Source of the DNA: an uncultured Gammaproteobacteria bacterium
Lineage (GTDB): Bacteria > Patescibacteriota > Microgenomatia > UBA8517
Reading direction: 5' to 3'
DNA length: 64,000 nucleotides
NCBI GenBank assembly: GCA_964526015.1
Contig: CAZGHY010000001.1
Span: 13,833 to 77,832, forward strand
The notes below the pieces were generated by a model, which had not been told where the DNA came from, searched no databases, and saw only the letters and a list, made by a program, of their open reading frames with translations. A program made the translations under genes and the position numbers. Numbering within the stretch: position 1 is the stretch's first letter; each line of letters starts with the position of its first letter. Below, piece after piece: positions 27,101-35,620 of the stretch.

Positions 27101-29608
27101 GTAATTCCATTAAAAAATACAGACTCTAGTTTAACTGTTCCAACGGTAGAATCTAGAATATTTACAGTTATAAATCCAAAAAACAGCCAAACATATTATT
27201 TAGAGTCTACAACTTTTAGCGAATTAGTAAATTTAAGAAAAGATTTAACACTATTATACTTGGTAATATCAAATGTTACTGGAACTGGCTTATCAACAGC
27301 CATTACAGTTACTACAAGAGATGTTCGTAAGTTTGGCAATGACCTAGACACTCAAGTTTCACAATCTTTAACTGATTCCCTTGCTGGTGGTGGATTTAAA
27401 AACTTTACCACTGTAAATAACTGGTTAAAATATAATCAAAACTATAATAACATCATTTTAGTTAGAGGAACTCACTCTATTTCTTCAGCATTAAGTCTTT
27501 CATATGCAAATAGAGAGGTTTTATTTGAAGGTGATGGCTATACTCAAATAAATGTTGACACCAATTTAACAATTGGAAGCAATGTTAGATTTAAAAACAT
27601 TAAGTTTAATCTAAATGGTAGTTTGTTTTTTGTTATTCAAGACAGCGATACAGTAAGTTTTGAAAACTGTGTATTTGAAGCCGCTTCAGTAACGCAAACT
27701 GGCATAGCTCTTGATAATGCAAACAATATTTCATTTAAAAACTGTAAATTTATTTACAAATATATTACAAACCCAAGTAGCAACTTGATTTCAAGTGGAG
27801 CTGGTTTAATTTACTCAAATGTTACAGCTTCTAGACTATTAAGCAACTTTAATATTAGAGATTGCAGCTTTACATACACGCCATCAACAGATGGCTATCA
27901 ACGTAATCCATTTGTAAATATAGAATTAAGTGAAGTAAGTGCATTTGTTAAAAATGTTGATATTTCAAATAATCAATTTATGAATAATGCCACTTCTGGT
28001 GGATTAATTATTGATTTGAAATCAGCGGTTGCTGTTGTTAATACAACAACTCCAAGCGTTACTACTTATAATAACAGACCGGCTTTAATTAACTTTAAAG
28101 TTAAAGATAACTGGTGTGATGCTAGACAAATAATTGCATTAACTTCTGTTACAAGTTCTTCTCAAGAAAAAAGCCCAGGTTTAAACTGTATCGATACAGA
28201 AATTTCTGGGAACAAATGTGGTGCCATCGCTTACTTTGTATCTAGAGGCGTTGGAAGTCTTGGATTAGTTTATGGACATGATGAAATGAACTCATCATTA
28301 ACCATAAAGCATAATTCTTGTCATTATATTTATAATTGTGATTCAACAGGACAACTATTCTTAGCTGATACCAATTCAGAATATGCTCAAGGCAATATTT
28401 TAATTGAAGGAAATCATTGTAATTGGATTCATATTTCTGCTTCAGGTGGAATACTTGAATCAATTAAGGTCAGCAAGAATTTCTTGAATGCTTATGATAC
28501 TACAGTTCTAGCTAATTATGGTGGAACAGCAGATTATGGCATTTACATCTATGCTAATTTGAATAGCAGCAAAGGCAGCAATTCAAATGTTATTGTAAGC
28601 GAAAACTCGCTTGAATATAATACTGTTAAAACAAGTGCTGGTGCAGTAACCACTTATACTTATGGTGTTGGCGGAATATTATTCTTAAGCTCAGGACAAA
28701 TATTAAATAACAAAATTACTGGCTTAATTAATAATTCAAGCACTACACATGGTATTAGATTTGGTGGAGTTTATACATTAATAAATGGGAACTCTATTTA
28801 TCGTCAATCAAGCAATATCTTTGCTTACATAAGATTCTCTCATCCTGACGGAACTACCACAAATCCTCAAGGGACTATAGTAAACAATTTATTTGATCAA
28901 TATACAACAGATGGTTCAAATGAACAAGTTTGTTTAGAAATTCCAGAAAACTTTACATATGAAAAGAATATAAATCAAACAAAGATTCAATTCTTAGATA
29001 TTGGTGAATCTGATGGATATTTAGATCCAAGTGCAGGATCTATTACTGGAGATACAACTTTATATAAAGGCGTGGGATATGATGTTTCTAGATCAAATTC
29101 AGCTACTGGAACATATGTAACTTTTGTAGACACTACAGATGTTAAAAAAGCTTTTAGAAAATATTATAATTTAAGTAATATTTTACCAAAAAATGTACAA
29201 GTTCTTGATGGTTATTTAGGGTTTAATGCATTAAGCAGCACAGATGGTGATTATACTAATGCATTTAATATTTTTTATATGGAAATAAGAAAAGGAAGAC
29301 TTGGTTTAGGTACATATTCAATTGGATCTAATCCATATGGTGTTCCACCTAGTTCAACTAGCATTTTAGATGTTAAAACTAATTCAATTAGTGATGGATC
29401 TGTAAATGATACTTCTCAAATAACTGTAGCTATTCCAGGAATAGCTACATATTATAATAATACTAATTATTTGTTTGTTAAACCTTCATCAAACAAATAT
29501 TATACAGACACAGAACAACCAATAATGCTTAATTTAAGCATCGGTTTTAGGGGAACTAATGCTCAATGGCAAGTTTCTCCAATAAGAATTAAATATCGTT
29601 GGGTTTAA
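24122..29608 (+). CDS. Giant tail fibre/tailspike protein with an internal beta-helix module, candidate receptor-binding protein
   Basis: 1828-aa ORF. Cap-like motif ILVRGTHSISSALSLSYANREVLFEGDGYTQINVD at about 27460, followed by repetitive NxxFxNC/ISxN beta-helix-like rungs. Confidence 0.6.
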   Translation: MSNFPTELDTDVELPLVTNNIVEIGAEAINALRDATFNIEENIGIDAQGSKNSIAERLETFLEPDGTPKTSVLVSLGLIALPIRDNQIAADAAIQESKITLTYSTQALYDLITALDSAITVVNGFISTVGIKVNPHIAGTDYRHKLSHIDIDTGTAYLNKNGLSRTTTNLNTLLSDINTDLVTHEKNDGTTTGTVPSANFAHVASGIEVNTSNFTTIPQIYDNAQDILEYLDNSNLFTVGNRFQNLFSNGIPRTSRLSTLTSDGYGQNLVPVTPVTSYLLAGGVTSPKDDIFNGDDVIEFFPADNSTNIFDSQFCTVKPGDILTINYGTVTVQFIIDNIKQITSPTISKRYLVRINGKNLLATTAGIARIDRALYNENKYGVLNTSVVNNSFNSYPSVIAANPRGAVALGIGFDPTKIDSTHYNLYLQLFPDGNPSNKTINLPAIDISGNAGATPGKYSLESIVEETNKKIHTAGFNLRFVAFSYNGEFGMMLADHYQNASFAIMSGIINSSGTYDSGLTASTYPNNVVDPITSQDALGFGDNGANLASPPYAISFSTTEKALVPTKIFVPLSRNYFYVNGVERDKLNFHTSQVLDTYGDGYWAASIISRTLTSSTVEATYQVSALLDNTKLASGKTLVVLPNVAVTDSSYNPIDYGRFIIKSVVFDPCCSPGTPTTTITVYDAIHGAGASPYASSASGTVRLYFNDDSIGVDNQNITDGYVATNFKRYHEFYVDQDGSTFSHEKLRFYTISGGTSTPVQLYCDNGEISKINIVSGSSKLKGYKFANNFSKLTLHISNYSDTTGLYDGYLCRYDGSVYSNSGPITSGRKGDVVRFYDETTVDFIDFKFNIDDSIASFTNKNLDIQVFKPIDTEGQQMRIGSGQLNDFTKEFKFSQDKRTFGNTSEKNLTTSALDFINAGEKYLHQNSVMRGFDYVSTSSNKISLTGGLAVVDGKFISSNNNYVDIPIVRELYSSVEYVNIIWAICINNKSELQVIPLKNTDSSLTVPTVESRIFTVINPKNSQTYYLESTTFSELVNLRKDLTLLYLVISNVTGTGLSTAITVTTRDVRKFGNDLDTQVSQSLTDSLAGGGFKNFTTVNNWLKYNQNYNNIILVRGTHSISSALSLSYANREVLFEGDGYTQINVDTNLTIGSNVRFKNIKFNLNGSLFFVIQDSDTVSFENCVFEAASVTQTGIALDNANNISFKNCKFIYKYITNPSSNLISSGAGLIYSNVTASRLLSNFNIRDCSFTYTPSTDGYQRNPFVNIELSEVSAFVKNVDISNNQFMNNATSGGLIIDLKSAVAVVNTTTPSVTTYNNRPALINFKVKDNWCDARQIIALTSVTSSSQEKSPGLNCIDTEISGNKCGAIAYFVSRGVGSLGLVYGHDEMNSSLTIKHNSCHYIYNCDSTGQLFLADTNSEYAQGNILIEGNHCNWIHISASGGILESIKVSKNFLNAYDTTVLANYGGTADYGIYIYANLNSSKGSNSNVIVSENSLEYNTVKTSAGAVTTYTYGVGGILFLSSGQILNNKITGLINNSSTTHGIRFGGVYTLINGNSIYRQSSNIFAYIRFSHPDGTTTNPQGTIVNNLFDQYTTDGSNEQVCLEIPENFTYEKNINQTKIQFLDIGESDGYLDPSAGSITGDTTLYKGVGYDVSRSNSATGTYVTFVDTTDVKKAFRKYYNLSNILPKNVQVLDGYLGFNALSSTDGDYTNAFNIFYMEIRKGRLGLGTYSIGSNPYGVPPSSTSILDVKTNSISDGSVNDTSQITVAIPGIATYYNNTNYLFVKPSSNKYYTDTEQPIMLNLSIGFRGTNAQWQVSPIRIKYRWV

Positions 29609-30171
29609 TAGAATTTACATTTATCTTTGCCCCATGTTGAGGCAAAAGCGTCGCATTTTAATTTACCTAATGTTGTTGTTGGCATACCAGGCTCAGGTGG
29701 AGCGTCTTTATCTACAACAAAAAATACATCCATATGATTACAACCATCATCACAAATACATTTATGGGCTGGTGTAACTGGAATTTTACTACAATGATCT
29801 TCTGAAACTGCAACAGTTTTTTTAATTGTATAGTAGTTATCAAGAAATCCACAATTTCCATCATAAATTGCTGATGCTGGATTACCTTTCATATTTAAAC
29901 AAGCATAATCATCTTGTTTAGAGCAAGAATATTTACTTCCACATACATCAATTTCTTTAGTGTCCACAGGCGTATCACTGACATCATTAGAATCAGCTAC
30001 ATTTGAGTCTTTAACGCCAAAATCTTTTACCTCTGAATCATTTGAAATTTCGCTTCCTGATTCTACTGCTTCATTTCCAGTATCCTCAGGTGGCGGAGGC
30101 GCAACTTGAAAATCAGTTCCTGAGCAAGCAGTTAGAGTTAAAAATACACAAATTGTAATTAAGTTTTTCAT
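29605..30171 (-). CDS. Secreted lipoprotein with an acidic linker and a 10-Cys C-terminal domain, a moron and candidate superinfection-exclusion factor
   Basis: Signal peptide MKNLITICVFLTLTAC with lipobox L-T-A-C. Asp/Ser/Glu-rich linker. Ten Cys in the last approximately 115 aa. Convergent with the fibre gene, overlapping its stop. Confidence 0.75.
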   Translation of the reverse strand: MKNLITICVFLTLTACSGTDFQVAPPPPEDTGNEAVESGSEISNDSEVKDFGVKDSNVADSNDVSDTPVDTKEIDVCGSKYSCSKQDDYACLNMKGNPASAIYDGNCGFLDNYYTIKKTVAVSEDHCSKIPVTPAHKCICDDGCNHMDVFFVVDKDAPPEPGMPTTTLGKLKCDAFASTWGKDKCKFY

Positions 30172-30181
30172 TGTTTTTCCT

Positions 30182-30592
30182 TTATTTCATTGTTAACAGA
30201 AGTTTTTGTAATTTATTTTTGTCAAAAGACACACTATCTTGCGGGAATTCTTTTTTATTTTGTATAAAAATTCTTATTTGGTTTTCATTTTTTATTTTAT
30301 AATTATTAATTATATAATTATTATATACTCCAAATGAATGATTGTATGGAACGTCATATGAGTCTATAATTAATATTAATTCAATTATTACTGGATTAGA
30401 AATATTATCATTAATATGAGTTACTTTTTTTATTTTGTAATCAATTAAATCTGTAATTTTAATTTTATGATTATAATTATTTGGGTTATTAATAAGTTCA
30501 AAAATAGCAGGCAAATCTCCATAAAAATCATTATTAAAATAATGAATAATCTCATCTTCTACTGTTTTAAGATTTCGTTCCATGTTTTCCAT
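30182..30592 (-). CDS. Asn/Ile/Lys-rich orphan protein in an extremely AT-rich gene
   Basis: ORF track 30182-30661. I prefer the ATG at 30590-30592 (MENMERNLKTV..). The GTG-initiated extension would run through the promoter and the GC hairpin. It ends 10 nt upstream of the lipoprotein gene start. Confidence 0.55.
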   Translation of the reverse strand: MENMERNLKTVEDEIIHYFNNDFYGDLPAIFELINNPNNYNHKIKITDLIDYKIKKVTHINDNISNPVIIELILIIDSYDVPYNHSFGVYNNYIINNYKIKNENQIRIFIQNKKEFPQDSVSFDKNKLQKLLLTMK

Positions 30593-30628
30593 CTTGTCTT
30601 TTTTATTTTCGGAGACCGCATTCCTACC

Positions 30629-30650
30629 GCGCACGCTCGCGCGCGTGTGT
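30629..30650. other. GC-rich hairpin inside a 40-nt 70% G+C patch: leader stem-loop, operator, or IS-end hairpin
   Basis: CACGC (30632-30636) pairs with GCGTG (30643-30647) across loop TCGCGC. The stem can be extended by G-T, C-G and G-T pairs. In 30611-30650, 28 of 40 bases are G or C, within an AT-rich genome. Confidence 0.5.
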
Positions 30651-30679
30651 ATAATAGGCACTCAATTTTTCCGTGTCAA
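30651..30679 (-). promoter_or_regulatory. Near-consensus sigma70-type promoter driving the minus-strand two-gene moron
   Basis: The minus strand reads TTGACA (plus 30674-30679), a 17-nt spacer, then TATTAT (plus 30651-30656). An A-tract lies just upstream (plus 30688-30695). Confidence 0.55.
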
Positions 30680-30802
30680 CTCCCCATCAATTTTTGCATT
30701 TTCGAGCATCTTACTGTTTTTTTTGGATGATCTGCTGATCAGCCTTACAATTTTTGTGGTGGTAATCAATAAACAAGTATTTTACTATACAAGATTAAAA
30801 AA

Positions 30803-31825
30803 ATGTCTGATAGCATTCTAGTAGTTAAAATTAAACATCATGCCGATCTAACCGAAGAGTTAAAAAAAGCTGTTTTGGTAGCTAACTATGCTGTTAAAAA
30901 TAGATCTAAACTCTCTTCAACTAATGTTTCTCATATTGGACTACCATCTGCAATTAGCAATCAAGTGCTTCGTAAATATGGCAAGAATAAGAAATGTAAG
31001 TCAATTAATGAGGAAAAGATTAAGTTAGTAGCACCAAATCAATCAGTTAAAATTGATGGCAATCAAATTAGAATAGTTCCATTAAAACTAATGCTAACTA
31101 ATGAAAGCAAGCATCAGATAACTAAAGTATATCAGATAGAATTAGATGCAACTTATGCTTATATAGCATTTAGCAAATCTAATACAAAACAATTAGATAC
31201 TAATAAATTCATTGGTGTTGATCTAAATGCCACTTCTCATTGTGCAGTAGCTGCTGAACCTATTAGTGGTAAAGTTATTAAACTTGGTAAGCAAGCTCCA
31301 CATATACATAAGAAGTATAAGGCATTAAGAAATAGTTTGCAGAAGCAGAGATTATATAAGAAGTTGAAAGAAACTAAAGGAAAAGAAACCAGAAAAGTAA
31401 AGGATATCAATCATAAAATTAGCAAACAAATTGTTCAGTTTGCTAAAGATAACAACTGCGGTATTAAGTTAGAAAAACTAACTGGTATTCGTAATAATAA
31501 GAAAAACAACAAAACATTTCGTTATACCTTGAACTCTTGGAGTTATTATCAATTAGGCACTATGATCGCCTATAAAGCTCTACTTGCAGGTATTCCAATA
31601 CAATATATTGATCCAGCCTACACCAGTCAGAACTGTAGTAGATGTGGTCATCTTGGAAAACGTAATGGTAAAAAATTTAAGTGTGCAAATTGTAATCACA
31701 CTGGTCATGCCGATGTCAATGCGAGTTTTAATATCGCAAAGTCATTGAACCTGATCTCTGCTACCGAGAAAAAGATCGGTGGTAATGGTGATACTGAAGC
31801 GCCTATGAGGCAATCAAATGCTTGA
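30803..31825 (+). CDS. tnpB: TnpB (IS200/IS605-IS607 OrfB-type RNA-guided endonuclease), compact 340-aa form with an intact catalytic triad
   Basis: RuvC-I is D140 in FIGVDLNAT (31220-31222). RuvC-II is E224 in GIKLEKLTG (31472-31474). RuvC-III is D304 in GHADVNASFNIA (31712-31714). The zinc ribbon CSRC-x12-CANC lies at 31634-31693. The motif PAYTSQNCSRCG is also present. Confidence 0.9.
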   Translation: MSDSILVVKIKHHADLTEELKKAVLVANYAVKNRSKLSSTNVSHIGLPSAISNQVLRKYGKNKKCKSINEEKIKLVAPNQSVKIDGNQIRIVPLKLMLTNESKHQITKVYQIELDATYAYIAFSKSNTKQLDTNKFIGVDLNATSHCAVAAEPISGKVIKLGKQAPHIHKKYKALRNSLQKQRLYKKLKETKGKETRKVKDINHKISKQIVQFAKDNNCGIKLEKLTGIRNNKKNNKTFRYTLNSWSYYQLGTMIAYKALLAGIPIQYIDPAYTSQNCSRCGHLGKRNGKKFKCANCNHTGHADVNASFNIAKSLNLISATEKKIGGNGDTEAPMRQSNA

Positions 31826-31883
31826 AGAAAAACTTTTGAACCTCGGAACCTCTAATGCTTTAACTTGGAGTTATTCAGTATAG
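31640..31883 (+). ncRNA. Predicted omega/reRNA region overlapping the tnpB 3' end and downstream spacer
   Basis: The location follows the known TnpB system layout. Local stems: TGCGA/TCGCA (31720-31738), CTACCGA/TCGGTGG (31761-31782), and nested AAGC-GCCT-atg-AGGC-..-GCTT (31797-31823). TTGAACCT is repeated at 31745-31752 and 31836-31843. Confidence 0.25.
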
Positions 31884-32729
31884 ATGGTCACTAACAATTT
31901 TTTCAGATCCGAATTATATAATAGTCATCATATTGTTCAAAATGGCATGATTTCTTATCCAAAAGAAGTTATTATTAGAACATTACGAGATTTTTTCAAA
32001 GATGATAATTATTATCGTTATGTTCCAGATGATTGGGGATTTCCAAAACGAGTTGATGTTACCGGATTAAATATAGACGCCGGAATACCAAATGACAGCT
32101 CAACCACTAGATTATTTATTGGTGAAGCCTTTAGTACGGACGTTTCTTTTTATCCAGCTATAATTGTAAGATTTACAGGATCTAAATATAAACCAATTTC
32201 TTTTAATAGAGAAAGATCAAACGTTCAATGGGATTATTATGCTGTAGATCTTGATGGCTATCAAGTAAAACATTTTAGATATCCTAAATATTTTTTATTT
32301 GCTGGAAGTTGGTCTGGAACTATTCAAATTGATATTATGTCAAGAGGTCAAAGGGCAAGAGATGAGCTTACAGAACTTATTGGTATGTTATTTTCAGATA
32401 TCGCACATGATTCTTTAATAAAAAGCGGTATAAGTATTATGGATGTATCTGTATCTAATATTAGTCAAGATTCAGATAGAAATGATCTAATACATAAAGC
32501 TTCTGTTAATTTAGAAATAAGATCTGAGTGGCGAAGACAAATACCTGTAGGTAATATAGTAGAAGTTATTAATTTTGCAATAGAAATTGGTAGAACAGAT
32601 GATCCAAATTATCCAATTTCACCAAATATGACAATTTACACTCAAAATTCTGTAATTACATCATTTATAAATGCCGTTTATCCTTATGATCCCGAAAATA
32701 TTCAATTTAATTTTAATTCGGGACTGTAA
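31884..32729 (+). CDS. Putative tail completion / tail terminator (neck-proximal) protein
   Basis: 281-aa ORF immediately upstream of the sheath gene. The assignment rests mainly on position. Confidence 0.35.
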   Translation: MVTNNFFRSELYNSHHIVQNGMISYPKEVIIRTLRDFFKDDNYYRYVPDDWGFPKRVDVTGLNIDAGIPNDSSTTRLFIGEAFSTDVSFYPAIIVRFTGSKYKPISFNRERSNVQWDYYAVDLDGYQVKHFRYPKYFLFAGSWSGTIQIDIMSRGQRARDELTELIGMLFSDIAHDSLIKSGISIMDVSVSNISQDSDRNDLIHKASVNLEIRSEWRRQIPVGNIVEVINFAIEIGRTDDPNYPISPNMTIYTQNSVITSFINAVYPYDPENIQFNFNSGL

Positions 32730-32742
32730 AGTATGGAAATAT

Positions 32743-32770
32743 TTGCTATCTGTATAGAGCGTAATATAAT
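32743..32770 (+). promoter_or_regulatory. Candidate sigma70-like promoter upstream of the sheath gene
   Basis: TTGCTA (32743-32748), a 16-nt spacer, then TATAAT (32765-32770), 70 nt upstream of the ATG at 32840. The AT-rich background makes chance matches likely. Confidence 0.3.
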
Positions 32771-32839
32771 ATTTTCTGCTTTTTGTTTAACAAAAGCTAA
32801 TAAAAACTTATCTTATAAGAAAATAGGAAACTAAAATAA

Positions 32840-35620
32840 ATGAGTCCAAATATCCCAGGAGCTGGAAATGTTTTACCAGGAATTTTTACAAGCGTAGAGA
32901 CCCTATCTAGGGGTGCCAGTATACCTCAAGGAATTAGAGTTCCTGCAATAATTGGTTTAGGTGAACGCCCTGAAACAATCGTTGCCTCTGCTCTTGGAAA
33001 TGGTGCTGATGGCCTAAATTCATCATACTCTTCAACTATTGGTGCGGATGGAAGACATTTCTTACTTTCTCTTGCTCCAATTATCCAAGGAAGAACAACT
33101 CTTTATAAAAACAATATCCCATTAACTGGTTTAGAAGCTGCTATCACCTCAGGTTCATTTTCAAATCTATATGATTATAGAGTTGATCCAGATACTGGCA
33201 AAATTGAATTACAAACCTCAAGATTAGTTGATTTAGGTGGATCATTCTATACTGCTGGCGTAACAAATGTTGGCCAAGGAACCATTTCAAATCTTGTATT
33301 ATCAAGCACAAATGCTCCAACCGAAACTTGGACAATTAAATGTATTGATGTAGCTAAAGATTCTGGCGGAAGCCCAATTGCTGGAACTGCTAAATTCTTA
33401 GCCTTTGGATCTGTATCTGGAAACGTTCTAGATGGTTATGGCAATCCAGTTCTTTGGATGGCTAATAGCACACTTAATACCAATGGTATTTTAACTTTCT
33501 CTATTGGTGAAACTGGTTATCCTTCATCAACCTCACCATTTAGACCAGGCGACTCATTCACCGTCAAAGTTTATGGTGGCGTATTAAAACAAGGTGATAC
33601 ATTAACCGCTACTTATATAGCTGAATCAGATATTAATTCACCAATAACAATAAACAACATGAATGACGCCCAATTAAATCACGGCGTTGTTTCCGCTGAC
33701 AATACACTATCTCTTGGCTGTCAATTAGCTTTCTCAAATCAAGCTCCAGCTGTAATTACACTTCAAGTCCCACCTCCATTACCACGTAGACAATCATTTG
33801 ATTTGTTTGACATTAATGCCACATCTACAGATGGTTATGAGTTCATTCTACCATTACCTCCTGGAATTACACCAGATATTAATAGTGATATTCATTTCTT
33901 TGTAACTGATCCAACAACTGGTGTAGAAACTCAATTAGTACCAAATAAATATGATTTCTATACAATAGATACGGTTGGCAATCCAACTTCTTCACAATTT
34001 ATATTTAGCGATACAAACCCACCTTCTGGATATGCATATAGTTACTCAGTAGTTTCAAAAGCTTCAGTAATTAACTATCAAATTGATGGCTATATCAATG
34101 CTAGCCAAACTGTATCAGATACTTGTACATTCTCAAGTACATCAATTACTTTTACAAGTGATTATGTTGGTAAACAAATTCGTATAGAAGACCCAGCTAA
34201 TGCAATTAATGCAGGAACCTTTGATATTACTGGAGTATCTGGTGGCGCGCTAACAGTTGAAACTAATGCAAGCCCTCCATTTGCTGATTTTACCAATGGA
34301 TCTTCAGTGGCTTTTAGAGTTATTAATACTCTAGATGGAACTGTAGTTGCCAGTACAACTGGAGCTGATGGTGTATTAACTGCAATTGGTGGTTCTGCTA
34401 CAGCAACATTTACCTCAGCTGGTATAAACTTTAACTTAGTTTCAGGTCCAACAATTATCAATAATGCTTATAGACTTGAAATTACTGCTGGAGCAAATAA
34501 AGGTAAATATCGTATTACCAATTATAGCTCAGGCCCAAATGAACTTACAATTGCTAAAACATTCTTAAGTGAAGCAGATGTCAAGTTTGAAGTAATTGAT
34601 TCATCTGAAAATAGCAACTTTATCGTTATAAATCATAATATAGTTCCAAATAACAATACTTTAAGAGTTACATTGGTAACAGATAAAGATGCACTATTCT
34701 ATGATGCTGGTTGGGTTACTGCTCTAGAAACTTTAGAAACTGTTGAGTGTGATATCGTAGTTCCACTACCAAATAACATGTTCTCGGCTGTTTTTCAAAA
34801 TACTTTAGCTCATTGTAGAGTTATGAGTAATATTCGTAATAAAAAAGAACGTGTATTATTCACTGGCGCTATCAGTGGATTAACTCCAGACAACTTAATT
34901 GGTAATTCAACTGCCGCTGTTGAAGATGTTGGTATCTTAGAAGGAATTCAAGGAGATTCAATTGCTGAAATTCTTGCAGGTAATACAGAAGATATTACTA
35001 ATTACAAAATTTCTGATAACTTTGGAGATACATTCCGTTGTGTATACTTCTGGCCAGATGAGATAATTACTCAGGTTGGCACAAGTAATGCAACTATCGA
35101 TGGTTTCTATATTGCTGCCGCGGCTGCTGGCTGGTGTGCCTCACAACCAAACATTGCGGTTCCACTAACCAATAAAGTATTGGCTGGATTCACAATATCA
35201 AATACAAAGAAACTTGCGCCAAATACACTATCAGATCTAGCGTTTGCTGGAGCTACAGTATTACAACCAGTTGCTGGTGGTGGCAAAGTTATCTGGGGAC
35301 GTACAACTACAAATTCAGGATTCGCTGAAGAAGAAGAAATCTCTATCGTGTTTATTCGTGATAGAATTGCCAAATCTTTACGTACCGGATTTGAAGGATT
35401 TATTGGTATACCAGAAGACGATAATACACAAAATGCATTATCAGGAAGAGCCAACTCACTATTTACCTCATTCATTTCACAAAAACTTATCACAGACTTC
35501 CGTGATATTATCGTGAAACGTGATGATGTAGATCCTCGTCAATGGAATATAGTCGCAAGAGTACAGCCAGTATATCCTGTAAATTATATTTACATTAAAG
35601 TTTCAATTGGCCTACTATAA
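32840..35620 (+). CDS. Contractile tail sheath protein, large form with insertion domains
   Basis: 926 aa. N-terminus NIPGAGNVLPGIFTSVE... The C-terminal block ISIVFIRDRIAKSLR..FIGIP....IVARVQPVYPVNYIYIKV is typical of sheath C-terminal domains. It is followed by a tube gene. Confidence 0.75.
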   Translation: MSPNIPGAGNVLPGIFTSVETLSRGASIPQGIRVPAIIGLGERPETIVASALGNGADGLNSSYSSTIGADGRHFLLSLAPIIQGRTTLYKNNIPLTGLEAAITSGSFSNLYDYRVDPDTGKIELQTSRLVDLGGSFYTAGVTNVGQGTISNLVLSSTNAPTETWTIKCIDVAKDSGGSPIAGTAKFLAFGSVSGNVLDGYGNPVLWMANSTLNTNGILTFSIGETGYPSSTSPFRPGDSFTVKVYGGVLKQGDTLTATYIAESDINSPITINNMNDAQLNHGVVSADNTLSLGCQLAFSNQAPAVITLQVPPPLPRRQSFDLFDINATSTDGYEFILPLPPGITPDINSDIHFFVTDPTTGVETQLVPNKYDFYTIDTVGNPTSSQFIFSDTNPPSGYAYSYSVVSKASVINYQIDGYINASQTVSDTCTFSSTSITFTSDYVGKQIRIEDPANAINAGTFDITGVSGGALTVETNASPPFADFTNGSSVAFRVINTLDGTVVASTTGADGVLTAIGGSATATFTSAGINFNLVSGPTIINNAYRLEITAGANKGKYRITNYSSGPNELTIAKTFLSEADVKFEVIDSSENSNFIVINHNIVPNNNTLRVTLVTDKDALFYDAGWVTALETLETVECDIVVPLPNNMFSAVFQNTLAHCRVMSNIRNKKERVLFTGAISGLTPDNLIGNSTAAVEDVGILEGIQGDSIAEILAGNTEDITNYKISDNFGDTFRCVYFWPDEIITQVGTSNATIDGFYIAAAAAGWCASQPNIAVPLTNKVLAGFTISNTKKLAPNTLSDLAFAGATVLQPVAGGGKVIWGRTTTNSGFAEEEEISIVFIRDRIAKSLRTGFEGFIGIPEDDNTQNALSGRANSLFTSFISQKLITDFRDIIVKRDDVDPRQWNIVARVQPVYPVNYIYIKVSIGLL

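Follow-up and report, generated by a model that had tools for sequence, protein, structure and literature searches.

How a tnpB gene persists when its transposase is missing is the question raised by a single locus in a 64-kb stretch of phage DNA, the whole of which is referred to here as the window. Cas12 descends from TnpB, whose accepted role is to prevent the loss of IS200/IS605 insertion sequences (IS) after their excision by TnpA. The persistence of many tnpB genes without TnpA and the role of viral tnpB are both unsettled, and the locus offers a concrete natural case. It carries an open reading frame (ORF) for a TnpB of 340 amino acids (aa), and tblastn searches of the 64-kb window with TnpA of two types, taken from close relatives, found no TnpA. 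The original prediction for this DNA had also seen no Y1 gene nearby, and had proposed that the nuclease could act as a homing or drive element between co-infecting phages. On the comparisons given below, TnpA-independent, RNA-guided homing between co-infecting related phages is fairly probable. The relative youth of the element, the existence of empty sites and the segregation of two target positions with occupancy all lend in silico support to the homing proposal. Coordinates of all features are collected in Table 1.

The gene starts with ATG, is uninterrupted and is the only tnpB copy in the window. The encoded protein matched the NCBIfam model NF040570 (guided_TnpB) with 164 bits (cutoff 100, E=5e-48) and the Pfam model PF07282 (Cas12f1-like_TNB) with 80 bits (cutoff 26, E=1e-22) over profile positions 1-60 of 60, confirming the intact TnpB ORF first described. 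A family alignment was made of 55 relatives sharing 48-89% identity. The proposed RuvC triad D140 (GVDLN), E224 (KLEKL) and D304 (HADVNAS) and the four cysteines of the zinc ribbon CSRC-x12-CANC (C278, C281, C294 and C297) were invariant in it, as expected from the earlier claim that both motifs are intact. In residue-level alignment with chain 8j3r_A, an AsCas12f variant, the triad fell on D235, E334 and D411. These we take to be the native AsCas12f RuvC residues D225, E324 and D401, assuming that the 10 extra residues are an N-terminal tag. An AlphaFold2 model of the protein (predicted local distance difference test score 84.8, predicted template modelling score 0.75) has the WED-REC-RuvC fold. 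Foldseek gave full-length matches of this model to AsCas12f, OsCas12f, ISDra2 TnpB and ISFba1 TnpB (E 1e-17 to 1e-9), the best being AsCas12f and OsCas12f (E ~1e-17; template modelling score 0.65-0.68 normalised to the query). Alignment and structure prediction, both of which had been suggested as checks, showed that the catalytic residues were assigned correctly. Every defining feature of the TnpB family that can be tested in silico is present in this protein. The REC lobe is tiny, with about three helices in residues 17-60. RNA-guided cleavage of double-stranded DNA, dependent on a transposon-associated motif (TAM), is predicted for the protein from these features. The GC content of the element is 0.323 compared to 0.316 for the window, in line with the phage-like composition already noted. 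One source gene call of the same tnpB (L194:1919-2980; L numbers are our handles for contigs) is 353 aa long and reads through TGA to the next TAA. It is probably a caller artefact and not recoding, because the long ORFs of the window are intact under translation table 11.

The ends of the element (30715-31878) and its TTAC target site were defined by comparison with sister phages lacking the insertion, another suggested check. These phages were drawn from IMG/VR and metagenomes, and all the sequences are metagenomic. The element is missing in six contigs (L027, L199 and L209-L212), where window position 30714/30715 is joined straight to 31879. Contig L027 runs from the equivalent of window 30597-30715 (99% identical) directly into 31879 onward, and the other five contigs come from other samples. 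Together they represent two distinct alleles, one in five identical contigs of L027 type and the other in L199. Empty sites read ...GAGCATCTTAC followed at once by TATAGATGG... The insertion lies 3' of TTAC, and 5 nt separate it from the ATG of a downstream gene for a 281-aa protein, and no target-site duplication was formed (TTAC-TATAG... in empty alleles, TTAC-element-TATAG... in occupied ones). TTAC is the target of IS608 (PMC8612924). Nine independent insertions of the family all end in ...GTTATTCAG and are unrelated in sequence beyond it in an alignment of 3' flanks. The stems of the hairpin at the right end (RE) vary by compensatory changes between copies (CTGACGAC/GTCGTCAG, CCAACGAC/GTCGTTGG, CTCCGA..TCGGAG). 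L001 and L002, tried as sources of the empty site, both carry the element, and an exact-pattern search of IMG/VR gave no further empty junctions.

The left end (LE) of the window copy has decayed. In copies with an intact left end, TTAC is found 35-36 nt upstream of an LE core (six independent copies), with a covarying hairpin between them. The left arm in the window has no counterpart of the LE core, no LE hairpin and no significant LE similarity. Homology detected by BLAST to the TnpA-bearing copy of L003 begins at 30786. In a shuffle test, similarity to the 3' end of tnpA as found in L003 was significant for no more than the last ~18 nt of the arm, and for these in the sister copy L001 alone (p=0.002). 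A remnant of ~60 nt of tnpA and a remnant of the LE core, both read by eye in this arm, were withdrawn on the result of this test. Y1 transposition requires hairpins at both ends, and since the LE hairpin is missing, the window copy would not serve as a substrate of a Y1 transposase. Among the features of an autonomous IS200/IS605 element, TnpA is absent, a hairpin is present at RE only, and insertion 3' of a specific target is retained. The element is best described as a non-autonomous, immobilised IS200/IS605 derivative, which has kept tnpB and RE and lost tnpA and the LE hairpin.

The guide RNA of TnpB (omega-RNA, also called right-end element RNA or reRNA) was analyzed in ten distinct copies of the clade, over the 210 nt that finish at the RE terminus. 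RNAalifold predicted 48 pairs, 15 of them compensatory and some within the coding region. In the named structure of 30 pairs at 31759-31878, 98% of the cells were paired compared to 32-47% with slid partners, 11 of the 30 pairs showed double changes, and the observed values were reached in 0 of 500 shuffles. A structured RNA which overlaps the 3' end of the gene and ends at RE is supported by this covariation. The scaffold may start further upstream, at ~31680. The window's own sequence folds with z = -2.3, and no known omega-RNA family of Rfam matched. In ISDra2 the guide is formed by ~16 nt of the flank directly after RE (PMC8612924). By this rule the predicted guide of the window element is TATAGATGGTCACTAA(CAAT), which has no second match within the window. 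In the empty alleles TTAC or TTAT is followed by TATAGATGGTTACTAATAAT.

The vacant and occupied alleles differ within this predicted target. Positions 11 and 17 are C/C in all occupied alleles, which belong to two diverged lineages, and T/T in all six vacant contigs. In the first ~180 nt past the junction, the vacant alleles are the same as their occupied clade-mates at all backbone-variable sites except these two. Only the same two positions distinguish the occupied L207 from the five identical L027-type contigs in the whole 846-nt gene. The vacant L199 has TTAT instead of TTAC as TAM, along with a private substitution at flank position 35. ISDra2 TnpB cuts 15 bp from the TAM on the non-target strand and 20-21 bp from it on the target strand (PMC8612924), so that in homing with the same cuts bases 1 to ~17-21 would be recopied from the donor. 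Position 11 and position 17 fall between the insertion point and the farther cut, with 17 lying between both cuts, and their co-conversion would therefore be expected. The C11/C17 pattern fits such co-conversion, or the survival of cleavage-resistant vacant alleles, or both. Two other sources of the pattern were considered and rejected: transposition by TnpA would leave the target unchanged, and vertical descent with precise loss would leave C/C. Presence/absence polymorphism at the same site, an element younger than its flanks (see below) and a short tract compatible with co-conversion, which together are the population signature of a homing endonuclease gene, were all found at this locus.

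The age of the element was estimated from the comparison of window with L001 and of L002 with L196. The window and L001 carry the same truncated element at the same site. Between them the synonymous divergence (dS) of tnpB is 0.069 while that of seven surrounding phage genes is 0.17-0.59 (pooled 606/2352 sites; Fisher p=4e-12), which makes tnpB 4-5 times younger at synonymous sites than its neighbours. Synonymous sites of tnpB are not generally constrained, because its dS is 0.53 against L003 and L018. Among the members of the L001-like clade tnpB differs at 0-2 of 1,023 nt, with 0 synonymous differences, while the 281-aa gene differs at up to 24 of 846 (17-24) and the 5' part of the sheath gene at up to 50 of 1,200 (p=1e-4 to 1e-10 against tnpB). 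The pair L001 and L002 (tnpB dS 0, neighbouring gene 0.10) was dropped from the age evidence, as a sliding profile showed these genomes to be near-identical over much of the region. The vacant alleles nest within the occupied L001-like clade, and the truncated left arm is common to the window and L001 lineages. The divergence pattern indicates that the element is younger than the genomes carrying it at the identical position and that it moved horizontally into the same site. Independent transposition into the two lineages would be excluded by the left arm, because it was carried along in its already truncated form.

The last point bears on classical transposition, in which the element would have arrived independently at the same TTAC in each phage lineage, mobilised in trans by the TnpA of a second IS copy carried by phage or host. 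Close relatives do carry functional-looking Y1 TnpA, the family inserts at TTAC and the RE hairpin is retained. However, apart from the missing TnpA, the absence of the LE hairpin needed by Y1 and the shared truncated arm, transposition would not alter positions 11 and 17, which co-vary with occupancy, and no close copy of the element was found among 185,579 reference genomes. This explanation is very improbable and appears close to refuted. The only close genome match (84%), L114 (JBEKIG010000024.1), is terminal on a contig of 24.9 kb that was assigned to a Nitrososphaeria metagenome-assembled genome and is possibly a mis-binned virus.

Between the window and L001 copies of tnpB there are 14 synonymous and 15 nonsynonymous differences, giving a ratio of nonsynonymous to synonymous rates (omega) of 0.27 (p=0.0009), and omega is 0.10 against L003/L018. 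Since the deficit of nonsynonymous changes is found between copies sharing the truncated element, tnpB appears to have been kept under purifying selection since the loss of tnpA. This speaks against a passive relic, in which one IS insertion lost tnpA and LE, and the inert tnpB-RE unit was inherited vertically and shuffled by ordinary recombination, with a nuclease of no role. The invariant catalytic and zinc-binding residues and the compensatory pairing kept in the omega-RNA are also contrary to it. Moreover, the tract of low divergence corresponds to the element and divergence climbs within ~30 nt of RE, unlike in random recombination, and the near-junction differences between empty and occupied clade-mates are confined to the predicted target or TAM. 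Decay is visible in the left arm (11% divergence between window and L001, no LE hairpin), L203 carries frameshifts, the window omega-RNA has small defects, and the backbones are mosaic, with fibre-tip and sheath segments switching between ~0% and 40% divergence; all of these would suit a relic. Taken together, a passive relic is unlikely.

Under the homing model, transcription of tnpB would start in the upstream region belonging to the phage and continue into the tail genes. TnpB would bind the omega-RNA formed from its own 3' end and RE, whose structure is supported as above, and the 3' guide would be the first ~16-20 nt of the flank, TATAGATGGTCACTAA... During co-infection with an element-free related phage, the complex would recognise TTAC and the target at the vacant site and cut it 15-21 bp from the TAM, as ISDra2 TnpB does. 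Recombinational repair from the occupied genome would then copy the element along with the few bases up to the cut, which is consistent with C11/C17. The phage's own genome would be spared because its resident target is preceded by the RE end (TTCAG) and not by a TAM. The element would in this way behave as a free-standing RNA-guided homing endonuclease gene, performing 'non-restorative homing' without TnpA. Such homing is theoretical for co-infecting phages, and TnpA-independent, TnpB-dependent spread is reported for plasmids only (2026 review, PMC13565253). No report of phage-to-phage TnpB homing was found in the literature searched. Expression, processing and cleavage, as well as the dependence of spread on the nuclease, are inferred.

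Several points weigh against homing. The phage genomes are mosaic, and ordinary homologous recombination, with no nuclease involved, could also move a young segment between lineages. Few independent events stand behind the C/T association, because the occupied genomes fall in effect into two lineages and the empty ones into two distinct alleles. Positions 11 and 17 of the empty targets that survive are mismatched to the guide of today. L207, the isogenic occupied contig, has a short sequence and may be a strain-chimeric assembly; the linkage of 11 and 17 to occupancy is nevertheless secure, because both positions are within 31 nt of the junction. Activity cannot be assumed for a modelled protein with such an unusually small REC, and the nearest solved structures are only ~20% identical to it overall. 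In the window omega-RNA one pair is a C-A mismatch (alignment A4 pair 153:164), an unpaired stretch has lost 1 nt, and the terminal hairpin is weakened. Finally, the tnpB of L203, a member of the window lineage, is frameshifted and may be a decaying copy or an assembly error. This copy (L203:1371-2393, equivalent to window 30803-31825) has a -1 indel at window 30862 and a +1 indel at 31245; changes are also found in omega-RNA helix 3 (31844-31846), and its 281-aa gene is identical.

A different role for the nuclease was also weighed, either as a competition weapon which excludes related phages at the start of the tail genes (marker exclusion) or as a regulator that controls the 281-aa gene through its guide RNA, with propagation being secondary. 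The start codon of a conserved structural-module gene falls within the target, T-even homing endonuclease genes give such competitive advantages (PMC13565253), and the surviving empty alleles resemble escape variants, with TAM TTAT or target mismatches. Purifying selection on tnpB would be expected here as well. However, a cut that is repaired with the occupied genome as template does not differ in mechanism from homing, and the spread across backbones indicates copying. Repression of the TldR type is not likely with an intact RuvC triad and a resident target which is preceded by TTCAG and lacks a TAM. No defence-gene context was seen, though no PADLOC search was made. A weapon or regulator with secondary propagation is, on balance, quite unlikely.

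The homing model can be extended to a natural RNA-guided gene drive among wild phages, in which the tnpB-omegaRNA unit persists purely by cutting vacant TTAC-target sites and being copied into them, and the vacant alleles are drive-resistant variants. Resistance would come from the mismatch at position 11 (likely seed), from the mismatch at position 17 and, in one lineage, from the TAM change TTAC>TTAT. This extension is possible and is put forward tentatively.

Among the closest known systems is ISDra2, the IS200/IS605 TnpB-omegaRNA (reRNA) system (Karvelis 2021, PMC8612924; Meers 2023, PMC10055086). Both have a RuvC D-E-D and zinc-ribbon nuclease, a guide RNA (predicted here) made from the tnpB 3' end and RE with the guide taken from the flank, a TAM which is the transposase target site beside LE, and proposed homing by double-strand break and recombination. 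The window protein is shorter (340 against 408 aa) with a much smaller REC, the TAM is TTAC instead of TTGAT, and the two proteins resemble each other weakly in sequence (phmmer E ~1e-3; 12-14% identity when aligned by structure). Unlike ISDra2, the window copy lacks tnpA and the LE hairpin, is phage-borne, and its inferred target is the vacant site of another phage and not the sister chromatid. With IS608 of Helicobacter pylori it shares insertion 3' of TTAC, and the intact relatives also share subterminal hairpins at both ends and the overlapping tnpA-tnpB order. Differences from IS608 are the missing tnpA and LE hairpin of the window copy, the RE terminus TTCAG and the different protein clade. 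The best sequence and structure matches were with Cas12f proteins (AsCas12f, OsCas12f, Al3Cas12f) and the TnpB 9nzp (E 1e-21 to 1e-23), with aligned catalytic residues. The window protein is 80-170 aa shorter than these, and the transposon end would set its guide. Neither a CRISPR array nor repeats were found in 29000-34000 and no CRISPR family reached gathering score; a CRISPR/Cas12f reading of the locus was rejected as there is no array.

Free-standing homing endonuclease genes of T-even phages (SegF, SegB, Mob; intronless homing) are likewise situated between conserved phage genes and spread into co-infecting relatives with short co-conversion (PMC13565253), and the phage genomes studied here are also rich in HNH and intein genes. 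Recognition by the window element would differ in being RNA-guided, with self and non-self told apart by element and TAM and not by substitutions in a conserved gene. Solo or IS1341-type viral tnpB genes, such as ISH12 in the Halobacterium phages phiH and ChaoS9 and phage 'transposase' genes, also lack tnpA, but their proteins are 25-39% identical to the window TnpB. No population evidence of phage-to-phage homing was found for them in the literature searched. TldR (PMC10705468) is similar as an immobilised tnpB derivative with a fixed guide beside a host gene. TldRs have lost the RuvC catalytic residues while the window triad is invariant, and the resident target in the window has no TAM. These features set the locus apart from autonomous IS200/IS605 elements, Cas12f CRISPR systems and TldRs alike. 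By analogy it is molecularly like the ISDra2-type TnpB-omegaRNA and population-wise like Seg/Mob homing genes. The molecular system is standard; the interest is in the natural series of occupied and vacant alleles.

TnpB in phages is common and not rare in itself, as 254 GenBank phage records encode some TnpB, all below 60% identity to the window protein (at most 39% among the 40 listed). No match to the locus was found by blastn against GenBank phages. Relatives in a large protein database form a tight clade, 330-355 aa in length. One of them, P0001 (89% identical), is on a different phage contig, of 163 kb, where the locus is unrelated and a 137-aa Y1 TnpA overlaps it on the upstream side. 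Y1 TnpA accompanies P0002, P0007 and P0022, and P0008 and P0016 are without it. Among the contigs, TnpA is present at L003, L006, L010, L013, L018 and L020 and independently truncated or absent at L004, L009, L012 and L023, the truncated ones being L009 and L012. Copies 74-89% identical occupy unrelated loci in other large phages, and the neighbouring genes are all different (ribonucleotide reductase/DnaB, PrkA/amidase, IF3/sugar nucleotidyltransferase, peptide deformylase). These varied contexts with and without TnpA point to a mobile IS200/IS605-type family of large phages from which tnpA was lost repeatedly. The Y1 TnpAs of L003 (7595-8008) and L018 (3606-4004) are 45% identical and their LE sequences are different, while the partner TnpBs are ~89-90% identical, which implies, as far as these sequences go, that the transposase and nuclease halves of the IS are exchanged modularly. 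Cellular relatives (45-53% identity; L115-L193) are mostly archaeal, from Methanosarcinales, Thermoplasmata, Micrarchaeota, Asgard and Nitrososphaeria.

The gene had been described as wedged between a receptor-binding fibre gene and the tail genes. Downstream, the 281-aa gene (ATG at 31884, without annotation) comes first and the tail sheath next. Upstream, the presumed fibre gene, which encodes an 1828-aa protein, is separated from tnpB by two ORFs on the minus strand and a conserved block of 118 bp. No profile match supports the fibre label; it is plausible because the C-terminus of the protein is hypervariable between sister phages. The segment ~28950-29920, comprising the fibre C-terminus and the 188-aa gene, is ~40% diverged between L001 and L002 and 0-4% between L001 and L027, with neighbouring DNA at 0-3%. 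It looks like a swapped receptor-binding or host-range cassette. The low-GC ORF is missing in all six empty-site alleles, present in all occupied ones, and ~20% diverged among the latter. The 118-bp block stands between it and the TnpB element, and the ORF looks like a second, older indel.

The 118-bp block has a GC content of 0.46 in a genome of 0.32 and contains TGTGTATAAT and CGCGCACGCTCGCGCGCGTGTGTATAAT. It is 96-100% identical in all alleles, occupied or empty, and both its flanks are variable. It is probably the phage's own, possibly divergent, regulatory or promoter region for the tail-module genes; a promoter and terminator scan gave no signal above shuffled expectation. The block was rejected as LE or guide RNA, being unchanged in the empty alleles. 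The IS insertion falls between this block and the first tail-module gene, ahead of which no terminator is predicted. No tRNA or Rfam family was found nearby. A 448-aa ORF with an HNH-like C-terminus is situated between the 281-aa gene and the tail sheath in L001 and L197 (L001:8958-10304, window equivalent 32730-32839). It is missing in the window and L002, forming a second polymorphism of homing-endonuclease type ~1 kb from the TnpB element. In L213-L217, whose 281-aa homolog is 52% identical, large fibre-like genes abut that homolog, after which come a 39-aa ORF, the sheath gene and a gene for 207 aa. Since the fibre-like genes abut the homolog in these distant phages, the block of lipoprotein, orf159 and TnpB appears to be a lineage-specific accessory island of the window lineage at a conserved module junction.

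Table 1. Positions of the TnpB element, its parts and the adjoining upstream features in the window.
Feature	Position	Strand	Description
Whole inserted element, 1,164 bp	30715..31878	+	IS200/IS605-family tnpB-only derivative; bounded by empty-site alleles
Target site/TAM, TTAC	30711..30714	+	Immediately 5' of insertion
Left arm, 88 nt	30715..30802	+	Decayed, no LE hairpin; from BLAST, shuffle test and LE-core comparison
tnpB	30803..31825	+	WED and very small REC (~residues 1-126), RuvC D140/E224/D304, zinc-ribbon TNB C278/C281/C294/C297
Minimal omega-RNA (reRNA) scaffold, predicted	31759..31878	+	Four helices and terminal hairpin; last 67 nt of tnpB and 53-nt RE
RE subterminal hairpin (CTCTAA-T-GC TTTA AC-TTGGAG)	31850..31870	+	In all clade copies
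RE terminus TTATTCAG	31871..31878	+	Element ends after its G; from independent insertions and empty sites
Guide-supplying flank, 16-20 nt, TATAGATGGTCACTAACAAT (predicted)	31879..31898	+	Directly after RE; predicted target where the element is missing; covers ATG (31884) of 281-aa gene
Conserved GC-rich 118-bp block	30597..30714	+	Outside element; ends in TAM
Low-GC (0.20) ORF, ~136-159 aa	30182-30592	-	Without family matches
Lipoprotein-like ORF, 188 aa	29605-30171	-	Between 1828-aa protein and tnpB

The near-isogenic phages described here carry occupied and vacant alleles of one site, and their only local differences are in the predicted target and TAM. This locus makes TnpA-independent homing between phages directly testable, as it provides a defined target, TAM, guide and set of candidate resistance alleles. 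The 340-aa TnpB, with its TTAC TAM and omega-RNA scaffold of ~120 nt, is also a candidate miniature editor. If the gene-drive extension is true, this would be the first documented case of phage-to-phage 'non-restorative' TnpB homing, complete with natural resistance alleles, and its nuclease, unusually small at 340 aa, comes from a clade that is mostly archaeal. The element would add an RNA-guided member to the homing nucleases which shape mosaic phage genomes.

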